Part shown: in pieces, positions 7,278 through 48,632 of the stretch
Layout of the letters: the number at the start of each line of letters is the position of its first letter
Numbering within the stretch: position 1 is the first letter of the stretch
Virus record (IMG/VR): IMGVR_UViG_3300027708_000072
Coordinates: 628-64,627 of that record
Source of the DNA: a virus
Taxonomy: Duplodnaviria; Caudoviricetes
Length of the DNA: 64,000 bases
Reading direction: 5' to 3' (one strand)
Notes under the pieces: generated by a model
Databases searched by the model: none
The model's input: only the letters and a program-made list of their open reading frames with translations
Told to the model about the DNA's origin: nothing
Program-made: the position numbers and the translations under genes

Positions 7278-7724
7278 ATGGATGAATTAATTAAAGCAAT
7301 GAAAATTGCATTTGCTAGCGAAAACGTTTATTACGTTAAAGCATCGTCATTTCATTGGAATATAGAAGGTTCAAACTTTCCGCAATATCATGCTTTGCTA
7401 GATACCATCTATACGGAAGTATACAATGCACGTGACGGTTTCGCTGAAAATATTCGTAAATTAGGTGCTTACGCACTTGGAAGTAATAGCTCATATATTA
7501 AATACAGTGCAGTACAAGAAAGTAATCAAGTACCGGAGCCGCAAGCCATGCTTGCTGAACTACTAGCAGACAGTGAAAAAATTGCTAACTTTTTAAAAAT
7601 TGTATTCGATCTTGCAGAACAAAATGGCGAGCACGGACTAAGTAATTTTATTGCAGATCGTCAAGATGCACATAAAAAGCATGCCTGGATGTTACGTAGT
7701 ACATTAAAGGGACAAGGAATTTAA
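7278..7724 (+). CDS. dps: Dps / ferritin-like DNA protection protein
   Basis: HWNIEGSNFPQYH, D-x2-AE-x-IR-x-LG and C-terminal KHAWML; 148 aa. Confidence 0.9.
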   Translation: MDELIKAMKIAFASENVYYVKASSFHWNIEGSNFPQYHALLDTIYTEVYNARDGFAENIRKLGAYALGSNSSYIKYSAVQESNQVPEPQAMLAELLADSEKIANFLKIVFDLAEQNGEHGLSNFIADRQDAHKKHAWMLRSTLKGQGI

Positions 7725-7725: not shown

Positions 7726-10566
7726 ATGGATTTGAAAGTACTACTTGCTAAGTTAGATAAAATAGACCAACGTCAGATATTGACGGAAAGTGCCACGATA
7801 GTAGAAGAAGTACTTTCAGCTGAATTAGAATTATTAAAAGAATCATATATTGCCTTGATGGAACGTGTGCGTGGTAAAGAATTAGAAGCATTACGCAACG
7901 TTAAAGATGAAGAACAACGCAAAAAACAAATAGCCATTTTAGCTGTTAAGAACAATTATCCCGGCTTGTTTGATCCTGTTACAGGTAAATGGGTTGATTA
8001 CAAAGGTAACTATGCTTGGTTCGGGCCTTACAAAGCTGAAGTTGAGCAAATGGAAAAAGACGGCTTGGTTCCGCCAGAAGCGCATACAAGTGCATTTTGG
8101 GGATTAATGGGCAAAGATGAACGCGATGCCTATGCTAGCAGTCAAGAAAACCGTTCCAAATATGACCTAGTGGATGATGCTGATGATATCATCGACAAAG
8201 CAAATCAAAGCAAAAGCTCTATTGCTGAAAGTGTTAATAAAGGAACACTTGCACGAGCTATAACCGAAGGCTTTGGCTATTCATTTATTCAACTTAACGA
8301 AAATATTAGCGAAAAAGAACATAATACATTAAAAGCAATTATTGAAAAATTAAACGACAATAAGTTTAAAGATGATGCTGATGTTCAAGCTATACTTAAA
8401 AAATATCAAGAATACGTATTATACCGCGATCAACTGATTGCTAAAATTAAACAAGCATTAGCAGAATTAAAAGGCAAAATGCCGCAAGCTAAACCACTGG
8501 CTGAATCTCGCGGGCAATTAACAGAAGAAATTTATCTAGTTCCCCATAAAGATAATACAGTAAGTGCTGTACATCTTTTTATAGATGCCGATGGCAATGT
8601 TGTTGAATATGCTATTAACGAAGACATCGAAGCACTGGGTCGCGGACTTGGGGCAGGACTTACATTTGGTTGGAGCGACAACGCTGTTGCTAAAATGATT
8701 TCCATGTATAAAGGTACTGCATACGGTGACGAACTGGCAAAACAACTTGCGGCTACAGAAGCCGCTAAAGCACGTAGCCCAACATGGTACATGGCCGGTC
8801 AAGTGGGCGGTGTTATTGCTGGAAGTACTCTTATACCAGGAAGTGGTTTAGTAAAGGCTGGCGCACTAATTGGTGGTCAAATAGCCAGCGATAAGTTTGT
8901 TCGAGAGCCACACAATTTAGATACACTACAAAAAGCCAAAGATGCAAATGCTGTTAAAAAAGTACAAAAATCAACAGGACAAACTCCTACAGGAAAGATG
9001 GATACTAGCAGTGTGGCCGCTGTAAAAACTAATGGTGCGCAAGTTGGTACTAGCACGCCGTACGTTGATAACTCTCGCACTACGGTACAATCAGCACAAC
9101 AAGTTGAACCAGAATTGGCAGATGTATTTAAAGATGCTGGCGTTAAAGATTTACCCGGGTTAATTGCTGTATTGAAAAAAGCAGGTGCAGACACTTACGA
9201 CAAAGTAGGAACAACACTTGCTAATCTACTCAAAATTGATGCGGCTCCTACAACTGTATCGGAATCTATTGTATATTCCAGCATGAGCGAAAGCGAGCGC
9301 ATGGCTTATTTACGCGACCGCATGTTAGAATTGGACGAAGGCCTAAATCCGTTTCCAATGCTTGGAAGATTACTTGGAATTGGTGCTGAGGCCGCACTAC
9401 TTAGAGTGGTGGCCAATATTGGCAAAGAAGAAATTAAATTAGCGTCCGGAGAAATTTGGAAGAAAACTGCTACAGGCATGTGGGAAAACGGTGCTGGAAA
9501 ATTAACTAATCCATCAGAGGTGGGGAAATTTATACAGGCAGAATTAAAGACTCCAGCAGGACAAAAATTGTTTGTGCAAAATAATCCAATGGGTTCTGCC
9601 GCGGCAAGTACAACTACACAAGCAACTACACAAGCAACTACACAAGCAACTACACAAGCCGCCGCAAGTGCGCAATTAAAAACTGGTGCTCAAACTGTAG
9701 TTAAAAACGAGCATTATGTTCTTAATAAGAATGGCGTTTGGTTTAAAAAGGATCCGCAAACTGGTAAACTGACCCAGGCATCATCAACCGAAGCAAATGC
9801 CGCGACGAAATCCGCCTTGCAAAATCCAAAGAATTTAAAAGCTCCCCAGGCAAGTAATCAAGCAACTCAACCAGCTGGAAACAAACCACCAGCGGCAACT
9901 ACTCCTCCAGCAACTCCAGCGGCATCTACCAGTATGGTTAATAGTTTAAAAGCTAGATTTCCAAGAGTTACAGCCGCACTAAGTAAGACACCTACAGGAC
10001 TTGTTACAATAGCCAAATATGGTTGGAGTAAGAAATGGTGGATTGCAATAGCCGCTATTATTGCGGCTGGATACGCATCCACTACTAGTACAGACCCGGA
10101 ACCGCCCGGCCCAAACACAGTGACTGATCCAACCAAACCAGTCGACGGTAAGTGTACAACACCAGGCTATGAATTAAGTAAAGATGGTAAAACATGTGTG
10201 CCTTCGAGTAGTCAAGAAGTCGTGCCGACACCAGTAACACCAGTAACACCAGTAACACCAGTAGTGACAATTAATAATGTTCCAGTCACTCCAGAACAAT
10301 TAGTAACTATTCAAAAATATGCTGGCAATATTAAAGCTATGATGAAGCAGTTAGAAGCCATGTATCCTGCTGATAAAGAAACCAAAGACATGCGATCCGA
10401 AGTTGACGAAGCCTTAAAAGGTATTCCAGAATCAGCCCAAAGTAGTCAACAAGTTCAAAGTAGTCAACAAGTTCAAACTCAGAACTCACAACGACAAGCA
10501 TCAGGCAAGTTTGGATTTGATCCAACACCAGCCGGTTACGGTGGCAATATCAGACCTGCAAACTAA
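7726..10566 (+). CDS. Large virion/ejection protein candidate with membrane segments and low-complexity repeats
   Basis: 946 aa; GRGLGAGLTFGWSD glycine helix, hydrophobic KKWWIAIAAIIAAGYA, possible degenerate PG-binding segment (VKKVQKSTGQTPTGKMD). Confidence 0.55.
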   Translation: MDLKVLLAKLDKIDQRQILTESATIVEEVLSAELELLKESYIALMERVRGKELEALRNVKDEEQRKKQIAILAVKNNYPGLFDPVTGKWVDYKGNYAWFGPYKAEVEQMEKDGLVPPEAHTSAFWGLMGKDERDAYASSQENRSKYDLVDDADDIIDKANQSKSSIAESVNKGTLARAITEGFGYSFIQLNENISEKEHNTLKAIIEKLNDNKFKDDADVQAILKKYQEYVLYRDQLIAKIKQALAELKGKMPQAKPLAESRGQLTEEIYLVPHKDNTVSAVHLFIDADGNVVEYAINEDIEALGRGLGAGLTFGWSDNAVAKMISMYKGTAYGDELAKQLAATEAAKARSPTWYMAGQVGGVIAGSTLIPGSGLVKAGALIGGQIASDKFVREPHNLDTLQKAKDANAVKKVQKSTGQTPTGKMDTSSVAAVKTNGAQVGTSTPYVDNSRTTVQSAQQVEPELADVFKDAGVKDLPGLIAVLKKAGADTYDKVGTTLANLLKIDAAPTTVSESIVYSSMSESERMAYLRDRMLELDEGLNPFPMLGRLLGIGAEAALLRVVANIGKEEIKLASGEIWKKTATGMWENGAGKLTNPSEVGKFIQAELKTPAGQKLFVQNNPMGSAAASTTTQATTQATTQATTQAAASAQLKTGAQTVVKNEHYVLNKNGVWFKKDPQTGKLTQASSTEANAATKSALQNPKNLKAPQASNQATQPAGNKPPAATTPPATPAASTSMVNSLKARFPRVTAALSKTPTGLVTIAKYGWSKKWWIAIAAIIAAGYASTTSTDPEPPGPNTVTDPTKPVDGKCTTPGYELSKDGKTCVPSSSQEVVPTPVTPVTPVTPVVTINNVPVTPEQLVTIQKYAGNIKAMMKQLEAMYPADKETKDMRSEVDEALKGIPESAQSSQQVQSSQQVQTQNSQRQASGKFGFDPTPAGYGGNIRPAN
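9611..9658 (+). repeat. 12-bp tandem repeat CAACTACACAAG x4 (encodes TTQA)
   Basis: Four perfect in-frame copies read directly. Confidence 0.95.
10228..10263 (+). repeat. 9-bp tandem repeat ACACCAGTA x4 (encodes TPV)
   Basis: Four perfect in-frame copies. Confidence 0.95.
10438..10473 (+). repeat. 18-bp tandem repeat CAAAGTAGTCAACAAGTT x2 (QSSQQV)
   Basis: Two perfect copies. Confidence 0.9.
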
Positions 10567-10592
10567 ATCGGTAATCTTTTTTATCTAAACGA

Positions 10593-10621
10593 TTGCTCTC
10601 ACGAGATAATTAATATATAAT
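10593..10621 (+). promoter_or_regulatory. Sigma70-type promoter TTGCTC-N17-TATAAT
   Basis: Correct spacing, intergenic, upstream of AAGGAG and ATG 10646. Confidence 0.65.
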
Positions 10622-10645
10622 TAGGCTATAGTTAAGGAGACTTAC

Positions 10646-10903
10646 ATGTCAGGACGTTCATACGGTGCAGAAGAAAAGGCAAAATTGGAAAGATTAATCA
10701 GTGAAGGCAGTACAGTATTAAGAGAAATTGAAGATTTATCAGAAGGCTTGAAAGAAACAGTTAAGGCAGTGGCAGAAGAACTCAATGTGAAACCCAGCGT
10801 TATTAATCGTGCTATTAAGATTGCACACAAAGGCGATTGGACTGCTCACAATGAAGATTGGGCAGAAATTGAAGCTATTTTAGATATCACAAAACGTATC
10901 TAA
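10646..10903 (+). CDS. T4 DsbA-like / GapR-like small dsDNA-binding protein
   Basis: 85-aa helical protein with the pattern I-E-D-L-x3-K-E-x4-A-E-E-L-x-V-K-P-x2-I-N-x2-I-K; lies upstream of the DNA polymerase. Confidence 0.6.
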   Translation: MSGRSYGAEEKAKLERLISEGSTVLREIEDLSEGLKETVKAVAEELNVKPSVINRAIKIAHKGDWTAHNEDWAEIEAILDITKRI

Positions 10904-10982
10904 TAAGTATATAAAGAAAGGCAGGCGGGCCATAATCCGCACAGTAGGTATTTGCAAGCCCTAAATTGCATATGGAGAACTA

Positions 10983-13652
10983 ATGAGCTATGTAGACGCA
11001 TGGTTCGACCGTAATAACGATGTTATTAAAGTTGTCGAACGCAACAAAAAAGGTGAAAGGGAATTCAGAGACATTCCTGTACGCCACACATTTTACTATA
11101 AAGACGCCCGTGGAAAGTATCTTTCAATTTACGGTGACGCTCTAAGCAAAGTTGTAGTTAAAAGTACAAAAGAACTACGCAAAGAACAAGCAATCAATTC
11201 AGGTAAACAATTATTTGAATCCGATATCAATCCAATCTTTGTAACACTTAGCGAAAACTATCTTAATGCAGACGCTCCCAAACTAAACGTAGCGTTTTTC
11301 GATATTGAAGTGGACTTTGATCCAGAACGAGGCTATAGCACACCAGATGATGCGTTCATGCCTATTACTGCTATCGCTGTTCACTTACAATGGATGGAAA
11401 CTATGGTATGCTTGGCAGTTCCGCCAAAGACACTGACCATGGAAGAAGCTACGGCTATGGTTGAAGAGTTTCCAAATACCATGCTGTTTAAAACAGAAGC
11501 GGAAATGTTGGATGTATTTTTAGATTTGATTAAAGAAGCAGATATATTAACTGGTTGGAATTCGGAAGGTTATGATATTCCCTATACAGTCAATCGTGTT
11601 ACCAAGGCACTGAGCAAAGACGACACAAGACGTTTTTGTTTGTTTGATCAATATCCTAAACGCAGAGAATATGAAAAGTTTGGACGCCAATCAGTCACAT
11701 ATGACCTCGTAGGTCGTGTACACTTGGACAGTCTTGAACTGTATCGCAAATACACATATGAAGAACGTCACAGCTACAGACTGGATGCTATTGCTGAATA
11801 TGAACTAGGTGAACGTAAAACACAATACGAAGGCACATTGGATCAACTTTATAATCATGATTTTAAAAAGTTCATCGAATACAACAGGCAAGACTGTGCG
11901 CTTCTTGATCGTTTAGACAAGAAGCTTAAATTCCTGGACCTTGCCAATACACTGGCACATGAAAATACTGTGCTACTGCAAACAACAATGGGTGCTGTGG
12001 CTGTAACTGAACAGGCCATTATTAACGAAGCCCACAGACGTAACATGCAAGTACCCAATCGTACCAAGATGGACGACCGTGAAGAAAATACGGCCGCGGC
12101 AGGTGCTTATGTGGCATATCCCAAAGAAGGTATACACGACTGGATTGGTTCACTAGACATCAACAGTCTTTATCCCAGTGCCATTCGTGCGCTCAATATG
12201 GGGCCAGAAACTATTATTGGTCAGTTGCGTCAAACAATGACACAAGAATATATCGATAACAAGATGGCCAAAGGTTCTAGCTTTGCGGCATCGTGGGAAG
12301 GTATTTTTGGATCATTGGAATATACTGCTGTGATGAATCAAGAGATTGGCACTGATATTACTATCGACTGGGAGAATGGACAGACTGATGTGGTCAGTGC
12401 GGCTGAGGTATACAAGTTGATCTTTGACAGTCATCAGCCTTGGGTACTCAGTGCCAACGGCACAATCTTTACTTATGAGAAAGAAGGTATCATTCCCGGC
12501 TTGTTAAAGCGTTGGTATGCTGAACGTAAAGAAATGCAGGCAAAACTCAGAGACTGTATTAAGACAGGCAATAAGATTGAAGAAGAATACTGGGACAAGC
12601 GTCAGTTGGTTAAGAAGATTAACCTAAACAGTTTGTATGGTGCTATTCTTAACCCCGGTTGTAGATTCTTTGACAAGCGCATTGGACAGTCGACTACACT
12701 TACTGGTCGCCAGATTGTTAAACACATGGCGGCCAAAGTAAATGAGATTGTTGCTGGGGACTATGACTATCGCGGTAAAGCTATTATATATGGCGATACA
12801 GACTCATGTTACTTCTCAGCATATAAGACACTACAAAAAGATATCGATGCTGGTAATATCGAATGGACACGAGAGAATGTAATCCAACTGTATGACAATA
12901 TTGGCGAAGAGGTTAATACAACTTTTCCGCAGTTTATGTTGGACACATTTCACGTGCCAAAAACACGCGGTGAAGTTATTAAAGCAGGTCGTGAAATTGT
13001 AGGTAGTAAGAGTTTGTTTATTACTAAAAAGCGTTATGCCGTGCTGTACTATGATAAGGAAGGCAAACGGGCAGACGTAGATGGTAAACCTGGTAAGATC
13101 AAGGCCATGGGCTTGGATCTGAAGCGTAGTGATACGCCGGAATTTATTCAGAACTTTTTGAGCGATGTACTTGAAAAGGTCTTAACAGGAGCCACCGAAA
13201 CAGATGTATTAGCACATATCAGTGAATTTAGATTGAGATTTAAAAGTAGGCCGGGTTGGGAGAAAGGTAGCCCAAAACGTGCTAACAAAGTTACTGAATA
13301 TCAAGCTAAAGAAGAAAAAGCAGGTAAGGCTAATATGCCTGGACATGTTCGTGCAAGTATTAACTGGAATACATTAAAACGTATGTTTGGTGACAAGTAC
13401 AGTATGAATATCACAGACGGGCAAAAAGTTATTGTTTGTAAACTAAAACAAAATCCTATGGGATTTACATCAGTCGCATATCCTGTAGACGAATTACGTT
13501 TGCCACAATGGTTTAAAGACATGCCGTTTGATCATGAAGAAATGGAACAGACTATTATTGATAACAAATTAGATAACTTAATTGGCGTATTGAAATGGGA
13601 CGTTCGTAGCACAGAAGAAAAGAATACTTTTAATTCACTATTCGAGTTTTAA
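10983..13652 (+). CDS. Family B DNA polymerase (T4 gp43-like)
   Basis: ExoI FDIEV, ExoII GWNSEGYDIPY, ExoIII YNRQD; polymerase motifs DINSLYPS, KINLNSLYG, YGDTDS, KKRY. Confidence 0.97.
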   Translation: MSYVDAWFDRNNDVIKVVERNKKGEREFRDIPVRHTFYYKDARGKYLSIYGDALSKVVVKSTKELRKEQAINSGKQLFESDINPIFVTLSENYLNADAPKLNVAFFDIEVDFDPERGYSTPDDAFMPITAIAVHLQWMETMVCLAVPPKTLTMEEATAMVEEFPNTMLFKTEAEMLDVFLDLIKEADILTGWNSEGYDIPYTVNRVTKALSKDDTRRFCLFDQYPKRREYEKFGRQSVTYDLVGRVHLDSLELYRKYTYEERHSYRLDAIAEYELGERKTQYEGTLDQLYNHDFKKFIEYNRQDCALLDRLDKKLKFLDLANTLAHENTVLLQTTMGAVAVTEQAIINEAHRRNMQVPNRTKMDDREENTAAAGAYVAYPKEGIHDWIGSLDINSLYPSAIRALNMGPETIIGQLRQTMTQEYIDNKMAKGSSFAASWEGIFGSLEYTAVMNQEIGTDITIDWENGQTDVVSAAEVYKLIFDSHQPWVLSANGTIFTYEKEGIIPGLLKRWYAERKEMQAKLRDCIKTGNKIEEEYWDKRQLVKKINLNSLYGAILNPGCRFFDKRIGQSTTLTGRQIVKHMAAKVNEIVAGDYDYRGKAIIYGDTDSCYFSAYKTLQKDIDAGNIEWTRENVIQLYDNIGEEVNTTFPQFMLDTFHVPKTRGEVIKAGREIVGSKSLFITKKRYAVLYYDKEGKRADVDGKPGKIKAMGLDLKRSDTPEFIQNFLSDVLEKVLTGATETDVLAHISEFRLRFKSRPGWEKGSPKRANKVTEYQAKEEKAGKANMPGHVRASINWNTLKRMFGDKYSMNITDGQKVIVCKLKQNPMGFTSVAYPVDELRLPQWFKDMPFDHEEMEQTIIDNKLDNLIGVLKWDVRSTEEKNTFNSLFEF

Positions 13653-14470: not shown

Positions 14471-15202
14471 ATGAAAGATATTTTACAGGACCTAGTAGCA
14501 CATACACATAGTCTAGGATTTTTACCGCTAGTTAAAATTTCTAGCACAGACCAAGAAACAGTTATCGAAGGCATGGCAGAAGACCGTAGCGTTATTTTGC
14601 AAGCCAAAACAAACAAGCCAGTTGGTCAATTTGACGGCACATTTGGTATGCCCAACTTGAACAAATTGGATTTGCATTTGAAGTGCCCAGAATACAAAGA
14701 AGGTGCTAGTATTGAAGTGGTTACCCAACAACGCAACGGCGAAGACATTCCAACTGGCTTGCATTTTGAAAATGCGTTCGGCGACTTTAAAAACGACTAT
14801 CGTTTTATGAACGCAGAAATCATTAATGAACAGATGAAAACTGTCAAGTTCAAAGGTGCAAGTTGGAACATTGAATTTGAACCAGCTGTTGCCAGTATTC
14901 AAAAGTTAAAGTACCAGGCGGCCGCACATACTGAAGAAACTACTTTCCAAGTAACGACCAAAGATGATAACTTGGTGTTTAGCTTTGGTGATGCAACTAC
15001 ACACGCAGGATCATTTGTATTCCAAGCAGGTGTTACAGGTAAACTAAAACAAACATGGGCATGGCCAGTTAGTCAAGTGCAAAGTATTTTGAACTTGAGC
15101 GGTGATTGCACAATGCGTATTAGTGATGCAGGTGCATTACAAATTACAGTAAACAGTGGATTGGCTGAATACAATTACATTTTGCCAGCACAAGCCAAAT
15201 GA
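14471..15202 (+). CDS. Probable DNA polymerase sliding clamp (gp45/PCNA-like)
   Basis: 243 aa, two-repeat alpha/beta pattern, ends ...ITVNSGLAEYNYILPA like clamp C-termini; replication-gene context. Confidence 0.6.
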   Translation: MKDILQDLVAHTHSLGFLPLVKISSTDQETVIEGMAEDRSVILQAKTNKPVGQFDGTFGMPNLNKLDLHLKCPEYKEGASIEVVTQQRNGEDIPTGLHFENAFGDFKNDYRFMNAEIINEQMKTVKFKGASWNIEFEPAVASIQKLKYQAAAHTEETTFQVTTKDDNLVFSFGDATTHAGSFVFQAGVTGKLKQTWAWPVSQVQSILNLSGDCTMRISDAGALQITVNSGLAEYNYILPAQAK

Positions 15203-17083: not shown

Positions 17084-17315
17084 TGAAAGATATCGAGCAG
17101 TAGTACAGACTCAAAGATTCTTATTAAAAATCTTGACCACTCCTCGAGTTCCTAAAGCCGTTAAAGATGAAGCAAGAGCATGTTTGCGTCACTATCCCAG
17201 CGAATGGGATATGGAGCAGGCCGCAGAAGCAAGCCCGCATGTGTTTGCCAAACGTATGGAAGATGTAACTCGAATGTTTAAATCCTACGAGGAAAAGAAA
17301 AATGAGCAAGCGTAG
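17070..17315 (+). CDS. Small conserved hypothetical protein (BPSL0761-like)
   Basis: MTLPDERYRAV...PRVPKAVKDEARACLRHYP pattern. Confidence 0.65.
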   Translation: MTLPDERYRAVVQTQRFLLKILTTPRVPKAVKDEARACLRHYPSEWDMEQAAEASPHVFAKRMEDVTRMFKSYEEKKNEQA

Positions 17316-18186
17316 TCTAGTAATTGGCATGGGTATTGGTAACTTGTACAAAGATGTACTAACAAAACTTGGCCACGAAGTCATTACAGTTGACAAGGAC
17401 ACTAGCAAAGGTGCGGACTTTGATTCAGTAGATTCAGCTTTGGTAGTATATGGCTTGTTTGATACTGCTCACATTTGTACTCCTAACTTTACACACTTTG
17501 AACTGGCCGCTAGAGTTGCTCCGCACAGTAAAATTGTGTTTATCGAAAAACCAGGTGTTGCTACAAGCGATACATGGACTAAACTTGTAACTACATTTAA
17601 ACAAACACGTTTCATAATGGTTAAAAACAACATGTGGCGTGACAACATAGCCGAGCTAGCAGAACTGGCAAGCAAGGCTAAAACTGTAAAGATTCGTTGG
17701 ATACGTAAGAATTGTATTCCCAGTCCCGGCAGTTGGTTCACTACTAAAAAATTGGCATTCGGTGGAGTCAGCAGAGACTTGATGCCGCACTTGTTGAGTT
17801 TGTATGTTGCTATGAATTCCGATTGGAAACATGATACTGTCAGCGGACAGACTGCTATGCAATGCTGGGAATTAAAAGATATTGAAAATACTGATTACGG
17901 TACTATCAATCCCGATGGCACTTATAATGTTGACGACATGTGTGTAATCAACTTTGGTAACAAATGGCGCTGTGCGGCCAATTGGCGTAGTATGGACGAA
18001 GAAGACAGTTCTATCGTATTTGTCATGCCAGATAATACTATAGAACGATTTGAATTGGGATGGTGTCCTGAAGAAGCATATCATAATATGATTGTGGATG
18101 CTATCACTAATATGGACAATTCTGATTTTTGGTTACAGCAATATGCTGTTGATAGTTGGATACATGAGAGAATAGATCATCTATGA
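17302..18186 (+). CDS. Gfo/Idh/MocA-family NAD(P)-dependent oxidoreductase
   Basis: GMGIG, ICTPNFTH, IEKP, GGVSRDLMPH. Confidence 0.85.
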   Translation: MSKRSLVIGMGIGNLYKDVLTKLGHEVITVDKDTSKGADFDSVDSALVVYGLFDTAHICTPNFTHFELAARVAPHSKIVFIEKPGVATSDTWTKLVTTFKQTRFIMVKNNMWRDNIAELAELASKAKTVKIRWIRKNCIPSPGSWFTTKKLAFGGVSRDLMPHLLSLYVAMNSDWKHDTVSGQTAMQCWELKDIENTDYGTINPDGTYNVDDMCVINFGNKWRCAANWRSMDEEDSSIVFVMPDNTIERFELGWCPEEAYHNMIVDAITNMDNSDFWLQQYAVDSWIHERIDHL

Positions 18187-19061
18187 CACGCTGTTTACAA
18201 ACAACAGGACAAGGCTTCTTTGAAGAAGTAGAATACGAACTCCCTTCGTTAGGGCCAACAGAAATTTGTGTTCGTGCTATTATGACTGGAGTATGTCGTA
18301 GCGATATCGATATGATGCAAGGTAATTTTGGACCTTTACCATTAAGTATGCAAGGTCACGAAGGATTAGGACAAGTAGTAGATGTCGGCTCCGAAGTTAC
18401 TAATGTGGAAAGGGGCAACTTTGTAGCAACCAGAGGCGAGCCAGCATACGCAGATTTTTATAATGTTCGCAAAGACGAATACGTGCAAGTGCCAGAAGCG
18501 CACCCACGTTATATTCTTGAACCGATTGCTTGTGGTATTAATACTGTAGATGTTGCCGATGTATCTAGAATAGACAAAGTACTAATTATTGGCAGTGGAT
18601 TCCTAGCCTGGGTAGCTTATCATACACTAACCAAATTTAAACATTGCGAAAATGTAGATGTACTAGGTACTAGTAATATCGATCTTTGGGGAGATACACT
18701 GTTACTCGGTACTAGCGAAAGTTATGACGTAGTTATTGACCTAAGTGGAAAATATGAGCTAGGTATCGATATTAACCTAAATAATAATGCACTGATTGTT
18801 GATGCAGTTGGTAAAGCAGTAAGTAGAGAAGAAGCACAGCAACAACTTTGGAAAGCTGTTACTACTATTAAACCAAGTCCACGTAATACAAACTTCTATC
18901 AATGTATGAAGGATGCTGTTTGGATGATTGAAAACGGCTATCTAGAGGTTGATAGTTTTTGGACTCGGTGTTATAATCGTAACACTGAATGGCAACAAGC
19001 GTTTGCGGATGGTGTGGATCGTCCGAACGGTTACAGCAGAGGTTATATCAAATGGGACTAA
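18183..19061 (+). CDS. Zn-dependent medium-chain dehydrogenase/reductase
   Basis: GVCRSD and GHEGLG catalytic-Zn motifs, LEPIACG, IIGSGFL. Confidence 0.85.
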   Translation: MTRCLQTTGQGFFEEVEYELPSLGPTEICVRAIMTGVCRSDIDMMQGNFGPLPLSMQGHEGLGQVVDVGSEVTNVERGNFVATRGEPAYADFYNVRKDEYVQVPEAHPRYILEPIACGINTVDVADVSRIDKVLIIGSGFLAWVAYHTLTKFKHCENVDVLGTSNIDLWGDTLLLGTSESYDVVIDLSGKYELGIDINLNNNALIVDAVGKAVSREEAQQQLWKAVTTIKPSPRNTNFYQCMKDAVWMIENGYLEVDSFWTRCYNRNTEWQQAFADGVDRPNGYSRGYIKWD

Positions 19062-20265: not shown

Positions 20266-21360
20266 ATGACAATTTTCTTAGTTGACTTAGAATCAGTTGA
20301 GACAAGGTACACGGGTCAATGGAAGACTCATGTACCTGCTTTACTTAAAAAGGCAGGACACAATGTTCAAGTTATCTCTGGCCCTGAGGATATTCCTTCG
20401 GCCACTACTCCTGGTGCTTTTCTTAATTTTGGTGGCACCAATATATACAAGTCTCGTCAAGTTGAGCAAATGGGCCGTTTATTTTGCGACGGATCCGTTC
20501 ATCCCGGCGACCACTTTATTTTTACTGACGCTTGGCATCCGGGCATTATAAACCTAAAGTATATGAGTGAGTTGCTGGGCATACCTGTAACTACACACGG
20601 CTTGTGGCATGCTGGTAGTTATGATCCTCAAGACTTTCTAGGTCGATTAGTTGGTGCGAAAAAATGGGTACGCCGTGCAGAACAAAGTTTTTTCCACGGG
20701 TTCGATCATAATTATTTTGCTACTGAGTTTCATGTAAAATTATTCTTTGACGAATTATTACATAATGGTGCTCCATCAGAAAACCCTTGGTATCATGAAG
20801 ACTGGCAAGAACGCTACGACAACGGAAAAATTGTTCGTAGCGGTTGGCCTATGGAATATATGGAAGATACATTGACTATGTATAAGAACATGCCCAAGCG
20901 TGATCTTATACTGTTCCCTCATCGCATAGCGCCAGAGAAACAGGTAGATATCTTCCGTGACTTGGCCATACATTTGCCGCAGTATGAATTTGTAGTGTGT
21001 CAGGATCAGCAACTAACAAAGAATGAATATCACAATTTGTTAGGCGAAGCTAAAATGGTCTTCAGTGCTAACTTACAAGAAACTTTAGGTATCAGTTGCT
21101 ATGAAGGTGCAGTGGTTGATGCTATACCATTAGTACCGGATAGACTAAGCTATACTGAAATGTATTCGGATACTTTTAAATATCCTAGCAAATGGACTGA
21201 GAGTTGGGATAGCTATAACGTATTTCGTCCAGACTTGTGTAAAGAAATTATACAGCACATGGATAATTACACCACACGTATTCCAAAAATTCGTAAACAA
21301 ACACGTCAATTAACTGAAAACTTTTTCTCAGCACACGTATTGTTAGAAAGATTAAAATGA
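20266..21360 (+). CDS. GT-B glycosyltransferase resembling DUF3524/GTDC1 (QTMAN)
   Basis: ILFPHRIAPEK and EY-x2-LL...ETLGIS-x2-EG...PLVPDRLSYTEM (E-x7-E donor-binding motif). Confidence 0.8.
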   Translation: MTIFLVDLESVETRYTGQWKTHVPALLKKAGHNVQVISGPEDIPSATTPGAFLNFGGTNIYKSRQVEQMGRLFCDGSVHPGDHFIFTDAWHPGIINLKYMSELLGIPVTTHGLWHAGSYDPQDFLGRLVGAKKWVRRAEQSFFHGFDHNYFATEFHVKLFFDELLHNGAPSENPWYHEDWQERYDNGKIVRSGWPMEYMEDTLTMYKNMPKRDLILFPHRIAPEKQVDIFRDLAIHLPQYEFVVCQDQQLTKNEYHNLLGEAKMVFSANLQETLGISCYEGAVVDAIPLVPDRLSYTEMYSDTFKYPSKWTESWDSYNVFRPDLCKEIIQHMDNYTTRIPKIRKQTRQLTENFFSAHVLLERLK

Positions 21361-21794
21361 TACTCAAACTGTTAGAACGCTTGGATCGCAAACGTATTAT
21401 TATGGATCGACAATGTAACGAGCCATTACTAACTCGTTACTACTTGTTCCTAAAAGAACGTAAGCATTTTCCATTCAACGTGTTCTTACATAAGTTTCAC
21501 AAAGGTGATCCCGGTGATGTACACGATCATCCTTGGCCGTATTTTACTTTAATACTTGCAGGCGGTTATTACGAATGGATACTTAGTGGCAATTGCCAAA
21601 TACGCAAATGGCGGGGGCCTGGACACTTTAGATTTTGTAGTGCTACTAGCTATCATCGTATTGAATTAAAAGAAGGTGTAACACCTTGGACCTTATTCAT
21701 GCCAGGTCCACAAACGAGAGAATGGGGATTCCTCGTTAAAGATAAATGGATACATAATGACTCATACTTATACGACAAACAACACAGTGGCTAA
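21357..21794 (+). CDS. Cupin-fold protein
   Basis: LHKFHKGD-x3-VHDHPW...GGYYE...HRI...WTLF...WGF metal-binding pattern. Confidence 0.65.
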   Translation: MILKLLERLDRKRIIMDRQCNEPLLTRYYLFLKERKHFPFNVFLHKFHKGDPGDVHDHPWPYFTLILAGGYYEWILSGNCQIRKWRGPGHFRFCSATSYHRIELKEGVTPWTLFMPGPQTREWGFLVKDKWIHNDSYLYDKQHSG

Positions 21795-22227
21795 TGGCGG
21801 AACTGTAACTTTAAATCCCGGTGGATTAACTGGTACGGGTTATACTATTGGATCAATTTCATCTTCACAATTGAATACCATCACTATATCAGGTGCTGGC
21901 GGCTCAGGTGGATTTGGCGGTGCTGGGCAAATTTATACAACTAACGGAACTGGTGGGGCTAACTGGGCTACAGCTTCTAATCCGTACGACACTGTAATGA
22001 AGATTAATCAAACTAATCCTCCAGAACTAGAAGTTAAAGGTCGAATGGTTATCAACGGTGTTGATTTAGAAGAACGGTTAAGTACAATTGAAAAAGTCTT
22101 GCGAATTCCCGAAAGAGATGTTAAACTAGAAAAGAAGCATCCAAAATTGAAGAAGTTATATGATGACTATATCAATGCATTGGGTAAGTACAGAACATTT
22201 GAAGCAATAAAAGGCGAAGATGAATAA
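21757..22227 (+). CDS. Hypothetical protein, Gly/Thr-rich N-terminus and helical C-terminus
   Basis: 156-aa ORF overlapping its neighbours. Confidence 0.65.
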   Translation: MTHTYTTNNTVANGGTVTLNPGGLTGTGYTIGSISSSQLNTITISGAGGSGGFGGAGQIYTTNGTGGANWATASNPYDTVMKINQTNPPELEVKGRMVINGVDLEERLSTIEKVLRIPERDVKLEKKHPKLKKLYDDYINALGKYRTFEAIKGEDE

Positions 22228-22711
22228 AATTTATTACACATGGCAACAGGTAGAAGGCGCTTGTTTAGAATTAGCTAGACAGATGCATGTTCATTACTGG
22301 CGGCCAGATTATATTGTAGGCATTACTAGAGGCGGGCTTGTTCCTGCTAATTTGCTTAGTCAGTATATGGGCATTAAAATGAACAGCCTGGACATTAGTC
22401 TACGAGATGGTGGAGATACCGTTAGTAACTTAGGTATGGCTGAAGATGCGTTTGAGGGCAAAAAGATTTTAATAGTTGATGATATTAACGATCAAGGATC
22501 AACTGTTAATTGGATTAAGAATGATTGGCCAAGCGGCTGTTTTCCAGATGATCCTAAATGGGATTCTGTTTGGGGAGATAATGTTCGCTTTGCAGTTTTG
22601 ACACACAATCAATCGAGTCAGTTTAAAGATCCAGATTATTATGTATGGTCCGTAAATAAAGCAGAACAAGACTGCTGGTTGGTTTATCCTTGGGAGGAAT
22701 TTTGGTTATGA
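22220..22711 (+). CDS. Type I purine phosphoribosyltransferase (Gpt-like)
   Basis: GITRGGL, PRPP loop ILIVDDINDQGST, C-terminal WLVYPWE. Confidence 0.88.
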   Translation: MNKIYYTWQQVEGACLELARQMHVHYWRPDYIVGITRGGLVPANLLSQYMGIKMNSLDISLRDGGDTVSNLGMAEDAFEGKKILIVDDINDQGSTVNWIKNDWPSGCFPDDPKWDSVWGDNVRFAVLTHNQSSQFKDPDYYVWSVNKAEQDCWLVYPWEEFWL

Positions 22712-23390: not shown

Positions 23391-23590
23391 TTACCGAAAA
23401 TACTGTTACTATTGTATGGGATAATCAGAATGGATTCTGGTGGAATGAAACTTGTGCTATGGTATTAGAAGTATTTGGATTGCCTGGTAATAGGTACGAA
23501 TCAAAGCCTGGACATGATGCTATGTTTTTCGATTTTAAAAATAAAAAAGATGCAGACCTGTGTCGTATATTACTAAGCGAGAGATTATGA
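23387..23590 (+). CDS. Small hypothetical protein
   Basis: GTGA/ATGA coupling with both neighbours. Confidence 0.6.
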   Translation: MITENTVTIVWDNQNGFWWNETCAMVLEVFGLPGNRYESKPGHDAMFFDFKNKKDADLCRILLSERL

Positions 23591-24150
23591 TAGTATTTCA
23601 AAATCAATGGGAAACATTTGAGTCTTTCGATTTTGATAAGTTAATCACAAATGAAGATCAAATTTTAGCAATGGCCGATATTAGGGCCATTATCAATTCC
23701 GGACAATATTTTACCAACAGTCCAAAATATCAAACCAATATAAATGTATTTGGACAATCCGGCGAGCACTGGATGAAGTTTAAAATGAGTTTTATATTCA
23801 GTTGTTTTATGTATTTGAAACAAGAAGTAAAAATAGATCAAGTACAAAGTTGGAGTTTTATGACTTCAAATAAAACTGTCGAGGATAGAGATAAACTTTG
23901 GCATACGCACCAATATGGTAGTGAAAGAACCTTATCGGGTATATACTACTTGCATATTCCGGATGACGTTACAGATATGGATACTTGTGGAACGGAGTTT
24001 GCTATAAATGGTTTGGATAATCCAGAACGTTTTACAGTTAAACCCGAACAGTACCAGTGGTTGATTTACCCAGGAAAAACTTGGCACAGACCTTGCCCGC
24101 CGCAGTCTAGTCAAGATCGTTTTGTAATTGCGGCAGATATGGTATTTTAA
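23587..24150 (+). CDS. Putative 2OG-Fe(II) oxygenase-like protein
   Basis: WHTH, LSGIYYL, GTEF, LIYPG-x2-WH, RFVIA double-stranded beta-helix pattern; start ATG 23587. Confidence 0.7.
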   Translation: MIVFQNQWETFESFDFDKLITNEDQILAMADIRAIINSGQYFTNSPKYQTNINVFGQSGEHWMKFKMSFIFSCFMYLKQEVKIDQVQSWSFMTSNKTVEDRDKLWHTHQYGSERTLSGIYYLHIPDDVTDMDTCGTEFAINGLDNPERFTVKPEQYQWLIYPGKTWHRPCPPQSSQDRFVIAADMVF

Positions 24151-24611: not shown

Positions 24612-25349
24612 ATGACTGAATCCGTAACATATAAAAATATAGACGACAAGGGCTATGAAGAAGCCAATCTAGCAGATGCTATCCGCTTTAAGATGAAGCG
24701 TGATGGTAAAAGATTTTGGGCTGGCGACAATGTCAGCGAGTATCTGCATGAGAGTGATAAAGAACACTTGATTAACGAAGCAACTGTAGCTTTTGAAAAA
24801 GTGTTGGATACTCTACTAATTGATAGAGAAAATGATCCAAACAGTAAAGGCACAGCTCGACGTCTAGCTAAAATGTATTTTAATGAGGTAATGAGTGGTA
24901 GATATGAAACAGCACCCGACGCAACAGCGTTCCCCAATGATTCGGAGGACCGTTACGAAGGTATGTTGGTTGTCCGTAGTGAGCTTCGCAGTATGTGTAG
25001 CCATCATCACCAACCCGTTGTTGGCGTCGCTTACATTGGTATTATTGCGGCTGAGAAACTCATCGGACTTAGCAAGTATACAAGGATCGCTCAGTGGTGT
25101 GCCCGTCGAGGTACTCTCCAGGAGGAACTTTGCAATGACATTGCTAGGGAAATCCAAAAAGCCACAGGTGCAACAGACTTAGGCGTTTACATCCAAGCAA
25201 CACATGGTTGTTGTGAGAATCGTGGCATTATGGCGCATAGCTCATTGACACAGACTACAGTATTAAAAGGTGCATTCAAAGACGACCTCGGTACTAAGAA
25301 AGAGTTTATGGACAATATTAAAATGCAACAAGAGTTTAGCCCACGTTAA
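24612..25349 (+). CDS. folE: GTP cyclohydrolase I
   Basis: SMCSHHHQP, IGLSKYTR, ARRGTLQE, ATHGCCENRG. Confidence 0.95.
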   Translation: MTESVTYKNIDDKGYEEANLADAIRFKMKRDGKRFWAGDNVSEYLHESDKEHLINEATVAFEKVLDTLLIDRENDPNSKGTARRLAKMYFNEVMSGRYETAPDATAFPNDSEDRYEGMLVVRSELRSMCSHHHQPVVGVAYIGIIAAEKLIGLSKYTRIAQWCARRGTLQEELCNDIAREIQKATGATDLGVYIQATHGCCENRGIMAHSSLTQTTVLKGAFKDDLGTKKEFMDNIKMQQEFSPR

Positions 25350-26764: not shown

Positions 26765-27150
26765 ACGTACAAGTACCAGCAGAAGGCATAATGAAAACAA
26801 ACGATTGGGGAGACAGTAGAGTCTATCGAATTACTTGTAATTGTGGAGATGAAAATCACAATCATAACATGTGGGTTGAAGCAGACGATCACGATATTAC
26901 TGTAACCATTTATACCACAGGCAAAACAAACTATTGGTCAAAAACACGGTGGTACCATATTTGGACATTGTTGACCAAAGGTTATATTGATACTGAATCA
27001 ACAGTATGTTTAACCAAGCAACAAGCACTCAATTATGCAGAGACTTTGAAAAGTGCTATTGATGATCTCGAAACTTTTCGTAATACTAGACAAAACAAAG
27101 AAGAACGTGCTACAATAAAGAAAATGGCAAATGAACAGGATTGTGTATGA
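26761..27150 (+). CDS. Hypothetical protein (CxC...H possible metal site)
   Basis: GAGG RBS; ITCNCGDENH. Confidence 0.65.
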   Translation: MNVQVPAEGIMKTNDWGDSRVYRITCNCGDENHNHNMWVEADDHDITVTIYTTGKTNYWSKTRWYHIWTLLTKGYIDTESTVCLTKQQALNYAETLKSAIDDLETFRNTRQNKEERATIKKMANEQDCV

Positions 27151-28007
27151 GTAAGATCAAAATAGCGGAACTGTTTTACAGTATCCAAGGTGAAGGACGT
27201 TACATGGGCGTCCCGTCTGTGTTTCTGCGCACATTTGGTTGTAATTTTAAATGTGCTGGCTTTGGTATGCCACGTGGTGAAATGAGTCACGAGGCTACTG
27301 ACATTGCGGCTACACATACTATGATTGAGTCTTTTCAAAAGTATGAAGACTTGCCGTTAGTCAGCACAGGCTGTGACAGCTATGCCAGTTGGCATCCTGA
27401 CTTTAAAGACTTGTCGCCTATGCTTACTAGCGAAGCAATCGCAGATCGTATTATGGAAATTCTTCCGCAGGATCATTGGAAAGATGAACACTTGGTCATT
27501 ACAGGCGGTGAGCCATTGTTAGGTTGGCAACGTGCTTATCCAGACCTGTTGAGTCATCCTAAAATGGCAGGTCTTAAAGAAATTACATTTGAAACAAACG
27601 GTACTCAAAAGCTAACAGAAGAGTTTAAAGAATATCTAGCACAATGGCAGATGTATACTGATTTTTCTAAAGAAGTCACATTTAGTGTAAGTGCTAAACT
27701 TCCATGTAGCGGAGAGAAATGGGAAGAAGCAATACTCCCAGAAGTAGTTTGTGAATACGAAGACTTTGGTACGGCATACCTAAAATTTGTTATTGCTACA
27801 GAACAAGATTTTGCCGATGCTGAACGTGCTATTGGGGTCTATCGCAAAGCAGGATTTAAAGGACACGTTTACTTAATGCCAGTGGGCGGTGTAGAAAGCG
27901 TGTACACAATGAATAATAAGAACGTAGCAATACTGGCTATGAAAAACGGACTACGTTATAGTGACCGTTTACAAGTGCCATTATTTAAAAATGAGTGGGG
28001 AACTTAA
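27147..28007 (+). CDS. queE: 7-carboxy-7-deazaguanine synthase (radical SAM)
   Basis: ELFYSIQGEG, VFLRTFGCNFKC...CDS, ITGGEPL, FETNGT, SVSAK, LMP, RLQ. Confidence 0.88.
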   Translation: MSKIKIAELFYSIQGEGRYMGVPSVFLRTFGCNFKCAGFGMPRGEMSHEATDIAATHTMIESFQKYEDLPLVSTGCDSYASWHPDFKDLSPMLTSEAIADRIMEILPQDHWKDEHLVITGGEPLLGWQRAYPDLLSHPKMAGLKEITFETNGTQKLTEEFKEYLAQWQMYTDFSKEVTFSVSAKLPCSGEKWEEAILPEVVCEYEDFGTAYLKFVIATEQDFADAERAIGVYRKAGFKGHVYLMPVGGVESVYTMNNKNVAILAMKNGLRYSDRLQVPLFKNEWGT

Positions 28008-28414
28008 TGAAAAAGTTTATTAGAAAAATGTTTGGTATTGATAAAATACTAGAAGAAAAAGATTTGGCATTGGCTGGTGCTATCAAAGCCAAGGAAGACG
28101 AAGCAGTTGCTAAGATGTCACCAAAAGAACGTGCTACCAAACGTAAAGAACCGTGGGTGAGTGTTTTGGAAACACACGTGAATAAAGACAATCCAGCAAA
28201 TGGCTTTTTTGAGCTTGACTGGAACGAGTATTTTGTAGTACAATTAAGACAAGCCGGATACGGCCTTGAAGGTGATACAGACGAGTTGGTCGTTGATCTT
28301 TGGTTTAAGACACTAGCACGTAATATGCTCAGTGACGAAGGACTGGATATGAATCGCAGTCAAGGTTTTATCAATGTTCAGAAACTAGACGCAAACAGAT
28401 CGGAAATTGGATGA
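28007..28414 (+). CDS. Conserved-looking hypothetical phage protein
   Basis: TAATG coupling to queE; EPWV and GFFELDWN motifs. Confidence 0.7.
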   Translation: MKKFIRKMFGIDKILEEKDLALAGAIKAKEDEAVAKMSPKERATKRKEPWVSVLETHVNKDNPANGFFELDWNEYFVVQLRQAGYGLEGDTDELVVDLWFKTLARNMLSDEGLDMNRSQGFINVQKLDANRSEIG

Positions 28415-29430
28415 CATATATTATAGTTGATACTGCTAACACGTTCTTTCGTGCTAGGCATGTGGTACAAGGCAGTGCTGATATCAAACTTGGCATGGCG
28501 TTTCATATTACCCTAAACAGTATCAAGAAAGCATGGAACGACTTTGGTGGTAGCCATGTGGTGTTCTGCCTCGAGGGGCGAAGCTGGCGCAAAGACTTTT
28601 ACAAGCCTTACAAAGCCAATCGTAAAGAAGCTAGAGATGCATTGACTGAACGAGAACAAGAAGAAGACAAGTTGTTCTGGGAAGCATTTGACGAATTTAA
28701 AAAGTTTGTAACTGAAAAAACCAATGCTACTATCCTACAGCATCCACGCTTAGAAGCAGATGATTTGATTGCTGGCTGGTGTCAAGCACATCCAGATGCT
28801 AAACATGTCATCATTTCAACAGATGGCGACTTTGCACAATTGATTAGTGGCAACGTTAGTCAGTATAACGGTGTAGGCGATTTACATATCACACACGAAG
28901 GCACGTTTGATGCAAAGGGTAAACCTGTTAAAGACAAAAAGACAGGCGAGCCAAAAGCCGCACAAGACCCAGAATGGATGCTGTTTGAAAAATGTATGCG
29001 TGGCGATACTAGCGATAATGTGTTCTCGGCATATCCAGGTGTACGTACTAAGGGTAGTAAAAACAAAGTCGGTCTTACTGAAGCTTTCGAAGACCGTAAT
29101 GCCAAAGGATATTCTTGGAACAATCTCATGTTGCAACGTTGGGTTGACCATAATGGCGTCGAACATAGAGTACTAGAAGATTACCTACGTAATGTACACT
29201 TGTGCGACTTGACTGCACAACCAGAAGATATTAAAAAATGTATTCGAGAAACAATTGAAACAAATGCCGTACCTAAAACTGTAGATCAGGTAGGTATTCG
29301 TATGCTTAAATTCTGCAACGCATGGGACATGAAAAAGATCGCAGACAACATACAGTCGTATGCTGAACCGTTCCAAGCAAAATATCCGGTTACCAAAGCC
29401 GCTCAAAATTTATTCGAGGAACAACTATGA
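28411..29430 (+). CDS. rnh: T4 RNase H-like 5'-3' exonuclease (FEN family)
   Basis: IVDTAN, WRK-x4-YKANR, EADD, STDGDFAQL, GDTSDNV. Confidence 0.9.
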   Translation: MTYIIVDTANTFFRARHVVQGSADIKLGMAFHITLNSIKKAWNDFGGSHVVFCLEGRSWRKDFYKPYKANRKEARDALTEREQEEDKLFWEAFDEFKKFVTEKTNATILQHPRLEADDLIAGWCQAHPDAKHVIISTDGDFAQLISGNVSQYNGVGDLHITHEGTFDAKGKPVKDKKTGEPKAAQDPEWMLFEKCMRGDTSDNVFSAYPGVRTKGSKNKVGLTEAFEDRNAKGYSWNNLMLQRWVDHNGVEHRVLEDYLRNVHLCDLTAQPEDIKKCIRETIETNAVPKTVDQVGIRMLKFCNAWDMKKIADNIQSYAEPFQAKYPVTKAAQNLFEEQL

Positions 29431-32635: not shown

Positions 32636-32651
32636 TACGGTTTAGTACCAT

Positions 32652-32680
32652 TTGACACCTCCTTTGGGAGGTGTTATAAT
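32652..32680 (+). promoter_or_regulatory. Perfect sigma70 promoter TTGACA-N17-TATAAT with extended -10 and palindromic spacer
   Basis: Exact consensus; ACACCTCC-tttg-GGAGGTGT inverted repeat at 32655-32674. Confidence 0.85.
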
Positions 32681-32705
32681 ATATACATACAGTAAAGGAG
32701 CATTC

Positions 32706-40242: not shown

Positions 40243-40263
40243 GATAACCTCAGCTGAGTGTTT

Positions 40264-40292
40264 ATAATACACTCTATTAGTTATCTTGTCAA
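40264..40292 (-). promoter_or_regulatory. Sigma70-type promoter TTGACA-N17-TATTAT for the glycosyltransferase cluster
   Basis: Reverse-strand consensus -35 at 40292-40287 and -10 at 40269-40264. Confidence 0.65.
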
Positions 40293-40308
40293 GAATCTTT
40301 GAATTATT

Positions 40309-42456: not shown

Positions 42457-42513
42457 TTAAATTCCTTTCTTTATGTTATATAATTATCACTTATAACGCA
42501 GTGACAAAATTAA

Positions 42514-43890: not shown

Positions 43891-43899
43891 TTTAATTCC

Positions 43900-45372: not shown

Positions 45373-45392
45373 CAGTTATTCCTCATTCCTAA

Positions 45393-48629: not shown

Positions 48630-48632
48630 TTA

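Follow-up and report, generated by a model that had tools for sequence, protein, structure and literature searches.

What does a glycosyltransferase modify when its gene sits among those of a 7-deazaguanine DNA-modification pathway in a phage genome? The question is raised by a 64,000-nucleotide stretch of Caudoviricetes DNA (positions 628 to 64,627 of the IMG/VR record IMGVR_UViG_3300027708_000072), hereafter called the window, in which a single open frame on the + strand (20266-21360, ATG to TAA) is translated into a putative glycosyltransferase (GT) of 364 residues, here named P0001. The strand opposite this frame is closed by many stops. The window comes from a viral contig of IMG/VR that is 64.6 kb long and is estimated to represent 18% of its genome, and because close relatives extend to 345 kb, the virus is a jumbo phage. 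An original prediction, made from the letters alone, had likened P0001 to the queuosine mannosyltransferase QTMAN (GTDC1, DUF3524 family) and proposed a deazaguanine as its acceptor. The full explanation that we favour, to which we assign a probability of about 0.5, is that P0001 glycosylates a 7-deazaguanine of phage DNA within a Dpd-type pathway, using a donor domain that is kin to that of QTMAN.

Linkage of the glycosyltransferase gene to 7-deazaguanine genes

P0001 is encoded in a 7-deazaguanine DNA-modification cluster, together with a DpdA-like protein of TGT fold, DpdL, FolE and QueE, and this association recurs in distant phage lineages. The GT gene had been described as lying beside DpdA. 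A DpdA-like gene indeed belongs to the cluster, 3.2 kb upstream, but the nearest conserved upstream neighbour codes for a homologue of DpdL, an enzyme proposed to be a 7-carboxy-7-deazaguanine (CDG) decarboxylase and characterized by the signature LxxxHRHxF, as described in a 2023 survey (PMC10516641). In the window protein, this signature is present as LGYPHRHIF. The DpdL homologue shares 31% identity with the phiST locus and 52-68% with those of Phosso, the PA5oct-like phages, ACP17 and BUDD, and it matches phrog_17812. Its true start is probably an internal ATG near position 19621.

The DpdA-like protein carries the DSGG catalytic motif as GDSGGFQ (residues 103-109), and it is 32% identical to the product of the gene just upstream of the GT gene in phage PAC2. 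A profile built from 18 DpdA-like homologues (A3) yielded 46 matches in the PDB, all of them TGT chains (best E value 0.0095), and with the AlphaFold2 model of the protein (pLDDT 83.6), TGT occupied all 50 best Foldseek rows (best E value 2.7e-7). The hidden Markov model (HMM) of the TGT family, PF01702, failed to detect DpdA both in the window and in three relatives. Taken as proof that DpdA is absent, this silence is overruled by the TGT-only profile matches and the TGT fold. DpdA3 was likewise detected by HHpred only, according to the text of PMC10516641.

A tblastn search with the GT identified homologues in 22 of 50,697 phage records, grouped in six lineages. Their identity to P0001 is 50% in Phosso, 40-44% in eleven PA5oct-like phages, 36% in ACP17 and ~25% in the Ep032/Ep026/PhiXhv group; BUDD/X1 and BCSR5 were also positive. 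DpdL is present in just 28 of the same records, among which are 17 of the 22 GT-containing ones, and the other five represent a single lineage, PhiXhv-15 and its kin. In five of the six isolate lineages, the GT and DpdL genes are close together, adjoining each other or within ~3 kb. The gene orders are DpdL-GT-x-FolE...QueE in Phosso, DpdA-like-GT-DpdL-...-phosphoribosyltransferase-QueE in PAC2 of the PA5oct group, QueD-x-FolE-x-DpdA-GT-DpdL-QueE in ACP17, FolE-...-GT-'queuine tRNA-ribosyltransferase'-DpdL-QueE in BUDD and DpdL...GT-DpdA-like-x-QueE...FolE in BCSR5. A DpdA-like gene was found in all seven lineages tested, i.e. the six isolate lineages and that of the window, and in Phosso this gene is far from the cluster.

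We also collected 32 diverse IMG/VR loci using six divergent family members as queries; these loci are not independent of each other and correspond to roughly ten sub-lineages. Within their 10-kb flanks, 28 loci encode DpdL, 25 a DpdA-like protein and 24 FolE. Of the four that lack DpdL, one is a contig cut at the GT gene (L247) and three are short contigs of one lineage (L264-L266).

Four further contigs (L084-L087), assigned to bins of Crocinitomicaceae, Fischerella, Erysipelotrichaceae and an uncultured bacterium, carry genes for the GT, DpdL, FolE, QueE and the exonuclease. Most likely, they are phage contigs that were binned by mistake.

A viral GT4 family with a QTMAN-type donor domain

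By itself, P0001 has no match in Pfam even at E<=10, none in NCBIfam and none by sequence in the PDB, and in PHROGs it hits an exonuclease family alone, at chance level (E value 0.43). The family to which it belongs is large and mostly viral. P0001 has at least 8000 relatives at E<=1e-3, the best 120 of which are 80-92% identical to it; clustering at 50% gave 1122 clusters at E<=1e-3, 711 at 1e-10 and 230 at 1e-30. Its ESM Atlas neighbours are members of its own family only, 95-98% of them viral.

The two sequence blocks on which the original prediction was based are literally present in the translation. ILFPHRIAPEK corresponds to residues 215-225 (nucleotides 20908-20940) and EY-x2-LL-x2-A-x2-VFS-x4-ETLGIS-x2-EG-x5-IPLVPDRLSYTEM to residues 254-299 (nucleotides 21025-21162). 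They harbour the donor-type motifs of the protein, namely R220/K225 in PHR...K, E272-x7-E280 and P291-x-RLSY-x-E298. The EX7E motif and an Arg/Lys pair are typical of GT4 enzymes, the latter binding the donor phosphates, and both are intact in P0001 and conserved in an alignment of 44 diverse full-length family members (A1). The invariant positions of this alignment are Q65, G117, E139, E280, P291 and E298; R220, K225, Y255, L259, S267, E272, G275, I276, L294, S295 and Y296 are conserved in at least 90% of cases. Conserved residues of the N-terminal domain, many of which are aromatic or acidic, comprise R14, Y15, W19, K62, Q65, D88, W90, H115, D120, D123 and E139. PF00534 was matched by 31 of the 44 members (best E value 3e-8) and PF13439 by three.

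The viral contig L244 apparently harbours two GT paralogues (1572-2636 and 10001-11092). One of them adjoins FolE, and the other, of the divergent P0229 type, adjoins DpdL and has degraded PHR...K and QETLG motifs.

The AlphaFold2 model of P0001 (pLDDT 94, pTM 0.91) is a full-length GT-B of GT4 type, with two Rossmann-like domains separated by a cleft. P0001 is predicted to be a retaining-type, GT4-like GT-B glycosyltransferase. Its best Foldseek matches are BshA and the archaeal glycogen synthase GlgA (E values ~1e-9 for these two), MshA, GlgM, PimA and PglA. VIA-align returned sucrose-phosphate synthase (6kih, Z 25.6, root-mean-square deviation (rmsd) 3.3 over 317 aligned residues), BshA (6n1x, Z 23.8) and the tetrahydrobiopterin glucosyltransferase (5zer, Z 20.6). 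BshA, MshA, LmbT and the latter enzyme, which acts on a pterin, a relative of deazaguanine precursors, are the best full-length structural matches, but these small-molecule GT4 enzymes share only 9-15% identity with P0001, and their profile scores are at noise level beside those of QTMAN. Two GT-B enzymes that glycosylate a modified base of phage DNA after replication, on the hydroxyl of 5-hydroxymethylcytosine (hmC), were also found, the phage HY126 GT (9iqz, Z 19.3) and the T4 alpha-glucosyltransferase (1y6f, Z 18.8, rmsd 4.1 over 305 aligned residues). Some 30 generic GT4 entries score above them, and they show no sequence-level relation to P0001. Among viral structure models, just the ACP17 homologue (TM 0.86/0.92) and one further protein were prominent.

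For comparison with QTMAN, we scanned metagenome contigs with a degenerate eight-residue motif of the PHRWEHDK type and obtained at least 120 stretches, 80 of which were made into loci. Complete open reading frames (ORFs) of 330-460 residues with the motif ~200 residues in were present in 41 of these loci, and 30 of the proteins were aligned (A2). As a positive control, PF12038 (QTMAN_N) was matched by all 30 (best E value 1.4e-65). The QTMAN motifs cited in the original prediction were correct, since PHRWEHDK is invariant in these 30 proteins and the consensus of the second block reads HEFFGIAV.EA..AGCLPWLP.RLSYPEL.

Comparison of the two alignments with hhalign gave a probability of 99.65% (E value 4e-25) over 171 columns, all within the C-terminal half; with the C-terminal domains alone, the E value was 4.6e-29, with 28% identity over 115 columns. 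The PHR....K of the phage family was paired with the PHRWEHDK of QTMAN. The relationship is reciprocal. All 41 QTMAN-like proteins scored with the A1 HMM (46.3-89.5 bits), whereas the best of 177,635 distinct PDB sequences reached 25 bits, with four sequences at E<=1, and among 60 ORFs of 30 generic GT4 loci in three metagenome-assembled genomes (MAGs) the highest score was 14 bits. Conversely, with the A2 HMM, all 44 phage members had scores of 27-82 bits. The best PDB chain, a generic GT1-group protein (36.1 bits), was surpassed by 42 of them; the best generic GT4 ORF had 38 bits. In a quick IQ-TREE tree, the phage and QTMAN proteins were split together from generic GT4 proteins with an SH-aLRT support of 96, each of the two families forming one clade at 99. 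For this tree, alternate rows of A1 and A2 supplied 22 phage and 15 QTMAN proteins, and 24 generic GT4 proteins remained after two of 26 control ORFs had been dropped for their length; the tool flagged long control branches. The controls of kinship were therefore all PDB chains and these 24 proteins from the three MAGs, a sample short of the whole GT4 diversity.

The similarity stops at the N-terminal half. When the N-terminal domains were compared, hhalign returned a probability of 1.1% over 25 columns, i.e. no similarity. PF12038 does not match P0001, and it was not among the 25 families listed, out of 32 found, for the 44 members at E<=1. Six-frame searches with PF12038 detected nothing in four MAGs whose contigs carry P0001 homologues of 61-72% identity, nor in 300 genomes of one phylum, in which no control genome was positive either. 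P0001 and QTMAN, the latter composed of PF12038 and PF00534, are both GT-B enzymes of GT4 type, and the C-terminal donor domain of QTMAN is the nearest reciprocal profile. They have in common the derived motifs PHR....K, EX7E and P-x-RLSY-x-E (P-D-RLSY-T-E in P0001), but WEHD of QTMAN is replaced with IAPE and HEFFG with QETLG, and P0001 lacks QTMAN_N. The affinity to GTDC1/QTMAN that had been proposed is therefore specific and exceeds that of generic GT4 enzymes in the nucleotide-sugar domain, and it is undetectable in the acceptor domain; membership of the DUF3524/QTMAN_N family as such does not hold. As judged from sequence, P0001 appears to be a GT4 with a QTMAN-type donor half, outside the QTMAN_N family. 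Its donor domain shares a specific common origin with that of QTMAN, and its N-terminal acceptor domain appears to be a different, family-specific module.

That P0001 is an ordinary envelope or lipopolysaccharide GT4 with no special kinship to QTMAN might be argued from the fold searches, in which both Foldseek and VIA-align listed generic GT4 enzymes only and no QTMAN/GTDC1 chain, and from the name 'glycosyltransferase involved in cell wall biosynthesis' borne by some homologues. However, the fold ranking cannot decide this point because the PDB set searched holds no QTMAN structure. The profiles and the tree group the family with QTMAN, away from the 24 generic GT4 proteins and all GT4 chains of the PDB, and the Atlas neighbours are almost all viral. 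We consider this explanation hardly tenable.

QTMAN itself transfers mannose from GDP-mannose, in alpha linkage, to the allylic hydroxyl of queuosine, a 7-deazaguanine nucleoside, as reported in bioRxiv 10.64898/2026.06.28.735034. P0001 could be a true analogue of QTMAN that glycosylates queuosine in host tRNA, its donor domain being closest to that of QTMAN. Among ten metagenomic loci sampled, a full ThiI gene (THUMP and ThiI, the tRNA 4-thiouridine synthase) immediately precedes the QTMAN_N gene in three (L096:3661-4833, L106:1652-2857 and L128:7493-8716), the other seven having unrelated neighbours; this adjacency hints that prokaryotic QTMAN homologues also act on tRNA. Nevertheless, P0001 is devoid of the QTMAN_N acceptor domain, and its gene is linked to DNA-modification genes (DpdA-like and DpdL) and not to tRNA genes, a setting of phage DNA modification as opposed to the tRNA setting of QTMAN. 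An action on tRNA is therefore very unlikely.

Fused or extended QTMAN-like forms also exist. The metagenomic loci L094 and L114 contain ORFs of 869 residues with the QTMAN motif at residue 690.

Gene content of the cluster

The features of the cluster are collected in the table. All of them are on the same strand as the GT gene.

Table. Genes of the window from the DNA polymerase to the exonuclease; positions are those of the window.
Product	Position	Strand	Remarks
PolB	10983-13652	+	Uninterrupted
Short UDP-glucose/GDP-mannose dehydrogenase-family protein, 257 aa	13654-14427	+	PF00984, PF03721
Clamp-like protein	14471-15202	+
Divergent DpdA-like transglycosylase, 570 aa	15371-17083	+	GDSGGFQ; TGT profile and fold
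Gfo/Idh/MocA-type sugar oxidoreductase	17302-18186	+	PF01408; best PDB match DgpA 7xr9, E 1.3e-8
Zinc-type alcohol/polyol dehydrogenase-like protein	18183-19061	+	N-terminal GroES-like domain; PF08240, PDB matches
Conserved protein, 200 aa	18989-19591	+	Homologue just upstream of ACP17 DpdA
DpdL homologue, 141 aa	19558-19983	+	QueD-like T-fold; LGYPHRHIF; ~280 bp upstream of the GT gene
GT (P0001)	20266-21360	+	GT-B, GT4-type
Cupin-like protein	21357-21794	+	phrog_4786; directly downstream of the GT gene, stop/start overlap
Type I phosphoribosyltransferase	22220-22711	+	PF00156, E 3.9e-15
2-oxoglutarate (2OG)-Fe(II) oxygenase	23560-24150	+	PF13759, E 1.2e-6
FolE, GTP cyclohydrolase I	24612-25349	+	First step to 7-deazaguanines; PF01227, E 4.3e-39
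QueE, 7-carboxy-7-deazaguanine synthase	27141-28007	+	Radical SAM; NCBIfam QueE, Radical_SAM/Fer4_12
5'-3' exonuclease	28411-29430	+

With respect to the precursor pathway, the QueE protein matched the NCBIfam QueE models with a best E value of 1.6e-15, below the curated cut-offs, and it is homologous to the annotated QueE proteins of PAC2, ACP17, BUDD and BCSR5. QueD is absent from the window and was found in a 94%-complete relative. No QueC was detected in the window. In the same relative (G001), two ORFs of ~400 residues (L279:889-2094 and L280:916-2028) each match ~60 of the 210 positions of the QueC model, one covering the PP-loop end and the other the C-terminal end. Both are candidates for divergent QueC-like enzymes, in which case the predicted end product (DG, CDG, ADG or another base) would change.

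Several neighbours relate to sugars. The short dehydrogenase-family protein has the N-terminal and central domains of its family and lacks the C-terminal nucleotide-sugar-binding domain; its best PDB matches are UDP-glucose dehydrogenases, and GDP-mannose dehydrogenase (1mfz) was matched with an E value of 1.1e-10. It possibly supplies a modified sugar donor, and a homologue has so far been found in L085. Among solved proteins, the sugar oxidoreductase most resembles DgpA, by which the sugar of C-glycosides is oxidized. This likeness is curious, as C-glycosylation is one conceivable 7-deazaguanine chemistry.

Homologues of the phosphoribosyltransferase are encoded in the flanks of 13 of the 32 diverse loci as well as in PAC2, L014 and L084. 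This enzyme may salvage the guanine that base exchange sets free, or it may convert a deazaguanine into its nucleotide. The 2OG-Fe(II) oxygenase is a possible tailoring (hydroxylating) enzyme. Among the loci tested, homologues of the cupin-like protein were present in L014 and L085 only, making it lineage-specific. The conserved 200-residue protein upstream of the DpdL homologue has no family match, with tblastn identities of 29% to ACP17 and 41% to L084.

In the PA5oct group, as seen in PAC2 (L002, 989-6215), a homing-endonuclease gene interrupts that of PolB, which is intact in the window. The replication module is flanked on one side by a ferritin-like protein (7278-7724) and on the other by a MoxR-type AAA ATPase and then a DUF2201 metallopeptidase/VWA protein (31532-33884). 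Beyond a run of large minus-strand ORFs (36036-51641), presumably structural, a single minus-strand ORF of 4095 residues occupies positions 51644-63931 (4118 residues to the window end).

Possible acceptors and significance for phage DNA modification

In the pathway that we favour, FolE, QueD and QueE would produce CDG, the DpdL homologue would convert it, and the divergent DpdA would exchange the resulting deazaguanine base into DNA. The GT would then add a sugar to the inserted deazaguanine, most likely on DNA after base exchange, and the glycosylated deazapurine would block restriction. Within the enzyme, the C-terminal domain is predicted to bind the nucleotide sugar via R220/K225, E272-x7-E280 and the P-x-RLSY-x-E loop, and the family-specific N-terminal domain may hold the 7-deazaguanine derivative. 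GDP-mannose is a candidate donor solely by analogy with QTMAN; in the window lineage, the three sugar-redox genes may tailor the donor. The genetic context of the GT points to a sugar-decorated deazaguanine, of a kind as yet undescribed, in phage DNA. The DNA of PA5oct, which harbours a GT homologue of 40% identity, resists several restriction enzymes, and a modified G was predicted by the authors from the QueE and PTPS genes, the base not being identified in the text of this 2025 preprint (PMC12191111).

A known system of related composition is the DpdA3/DpdL system of phiST (Cui et al. 2023, PMC10516641). Like the window phage, phiST is described as having FolE, QueD, QueE, a DpdA of highly divergent sequence and a DpdL that bears the signature LxxxHRHxF. 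It has no GT homologue, and its DNA carries plain dDG according to that article, whereas the window phage possesses an additional, tightly linked GT.

A number of observations weigh against the pathway proposed above. As the N-terminal domain is unlike QTMAN_N, homology informs on the donor half and the ancestry of the enzyme and not on its acceptor, for which a deazaguanine is proposed from gene neighbourhood. Eleven of the 28 DpdL-containing phage records, including phiST and its kin, have no GT, and for that reason we regard the GT as an optional yet tightly linked add-on to DpdL-type systems. No deazaguanine gene was detected in the available flanks of L264-L266. In PhiXhv-15 (L238, 5819-9053), the GT gene follows genes for GlmS and an LmbE/BshB-type deacetylase and is ~94 kb away from the DpdA-like gene; these two neighbours suggest an amino-sugar donor or another pathway. 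The chemistry is also demanding. QTMAN glycosylates the cyclopentenediol of queuosine, but the deazaguanines expected for P0001 lack this moiety, and CDG, ADG and 7-deazaguanine, the proposed DpdL product, have no hydroxyl of the kind that QTMAN uses, so that an N-, C- or acyl-glycoside or an additional hydroxylation would be needed. Lastly, the GT family is acidic, with a median isoelectric point (pI) of 5.6 and no evident DNA-binding character. The QTMAN-like set is equally acidic (pI 5.7), and overall charge was dropped as a clue to DNA binding on account of these similar values.

With respect to hydroxylation, candidate genes nearby are those of the 2OG oxygenase and of the lineage-specific cupin.

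The loci of PhiXhv-15 and L264-L266, with no adjacent deazaguanine genes, speak for the idea that the acceptor is unrelated to deazaguanine, for example a different DNA base, a protein of the phage or its host, or a glycan of the host, and that the GT merely travels with a replication and nucleotide module. The cluster indeed sits inside such a module, with PolB, the clamp-like protein and the 5'-3' exonuclease, and PhiXhv-15 combines the GT with GlmS and the deacetylase. On the other hand, the adjacency with DpdL, which may be on either side and is often only a few hundred bp away, survives a drop of GT identity to 25% and the reshuffling of the genes, and the DpdA-like gene is common to every lineage tested. 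PhiXhv-15 is no exception, as other parts of its genome encode a DpdA-like protein (E value 3e-17), FolE and a radical-SAM protein. In addition, no hydroxymethyl-pyrimidine pathway gene was present among the window ORFs scanned. We therefore regard an unrelated acceptor as improbable.

The main alternative places P0001 in the same pathway and has it act before insertion, on the free 7-deazaguanine base or on the nucleotide made by the phosphoribosyltransferase, its product being an intermediate or the final DpdA substrate. The acidity of the family would fit such a role, as would the small acceptors used by enzymes with the closest solved folds (malate for BshA, ergothioneine for LmbT and tetrahydrobiopterin for 5zer) and the recurrence of the phosphoribosyltransferase in the clusters. 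Furthermore, the free base is the predicted substrate of DpdL, and dpdA and dpdL of ACP17 alone gave no dDG in E. coli, a result for which the authors raise 'other unknown enzymes' in their text (PMC10516641) and which the GT may explain. Against this order of events, a TGT-type pocket would have to accept a sugar-bearing base, and phiST makes dDG without a GT. Overall, we find glycosylation prior to insertion unlikely, glycosylation of the inserted base remaining our preferred reading.

Tentatively, that reading can be taken further. The sugar might be attached directly to the 7-deazaguanine base in genomic DNA through an unusual N-, C- or acyl-glycoside chemistry, and the phage GT and QTMAN might both descend from one ancestral deazaguanine-glycosylating enzyme, of which the donor domain was retained and the acceptor domain exchanged to suit either DNA or tRNA. 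Such a base would, to our knowledge, be the first glycosylated one of purine type in DNA of any source. Our literature searches found no paper linking a glycosyltransferase to these clusters or reporting a glycosylated deazaguanine in DNA. The 2023 survey names DpdA1-4, DpdL, DpdM and DpdN and lists cyano, amido, aminomethyl, methyl- or formyl-aminomethyl and carboxy groups, or none, as the substituents of 7-deazaguanine in DNA; its main text contains neither 'glycosyl' nor 'sugar' (PMC10516641).

The existence of a GT family linked to DpdL and DpdA predicts a bulkier layer of guanine hypermodification in phages, comparable to T4 with its glucosyl-hmC, the sugar being carried by a purine analogue instead. 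If true, such a glycosylated layer would have consequences for restriction, for CRISPR and for the modification-dependent nucleases by which PA5oct is already targeted. As family members occur in cultured phages (the PA5oct group, ACP17, Phosso, BUDD/X1 and BCSR5), the prediction is directly testable. The shared donor domain would also be the first candidate for an evolutionary connection of a viral DNA-modification enzyme with the vertebrate enzyme that makes manQ in tRNA.

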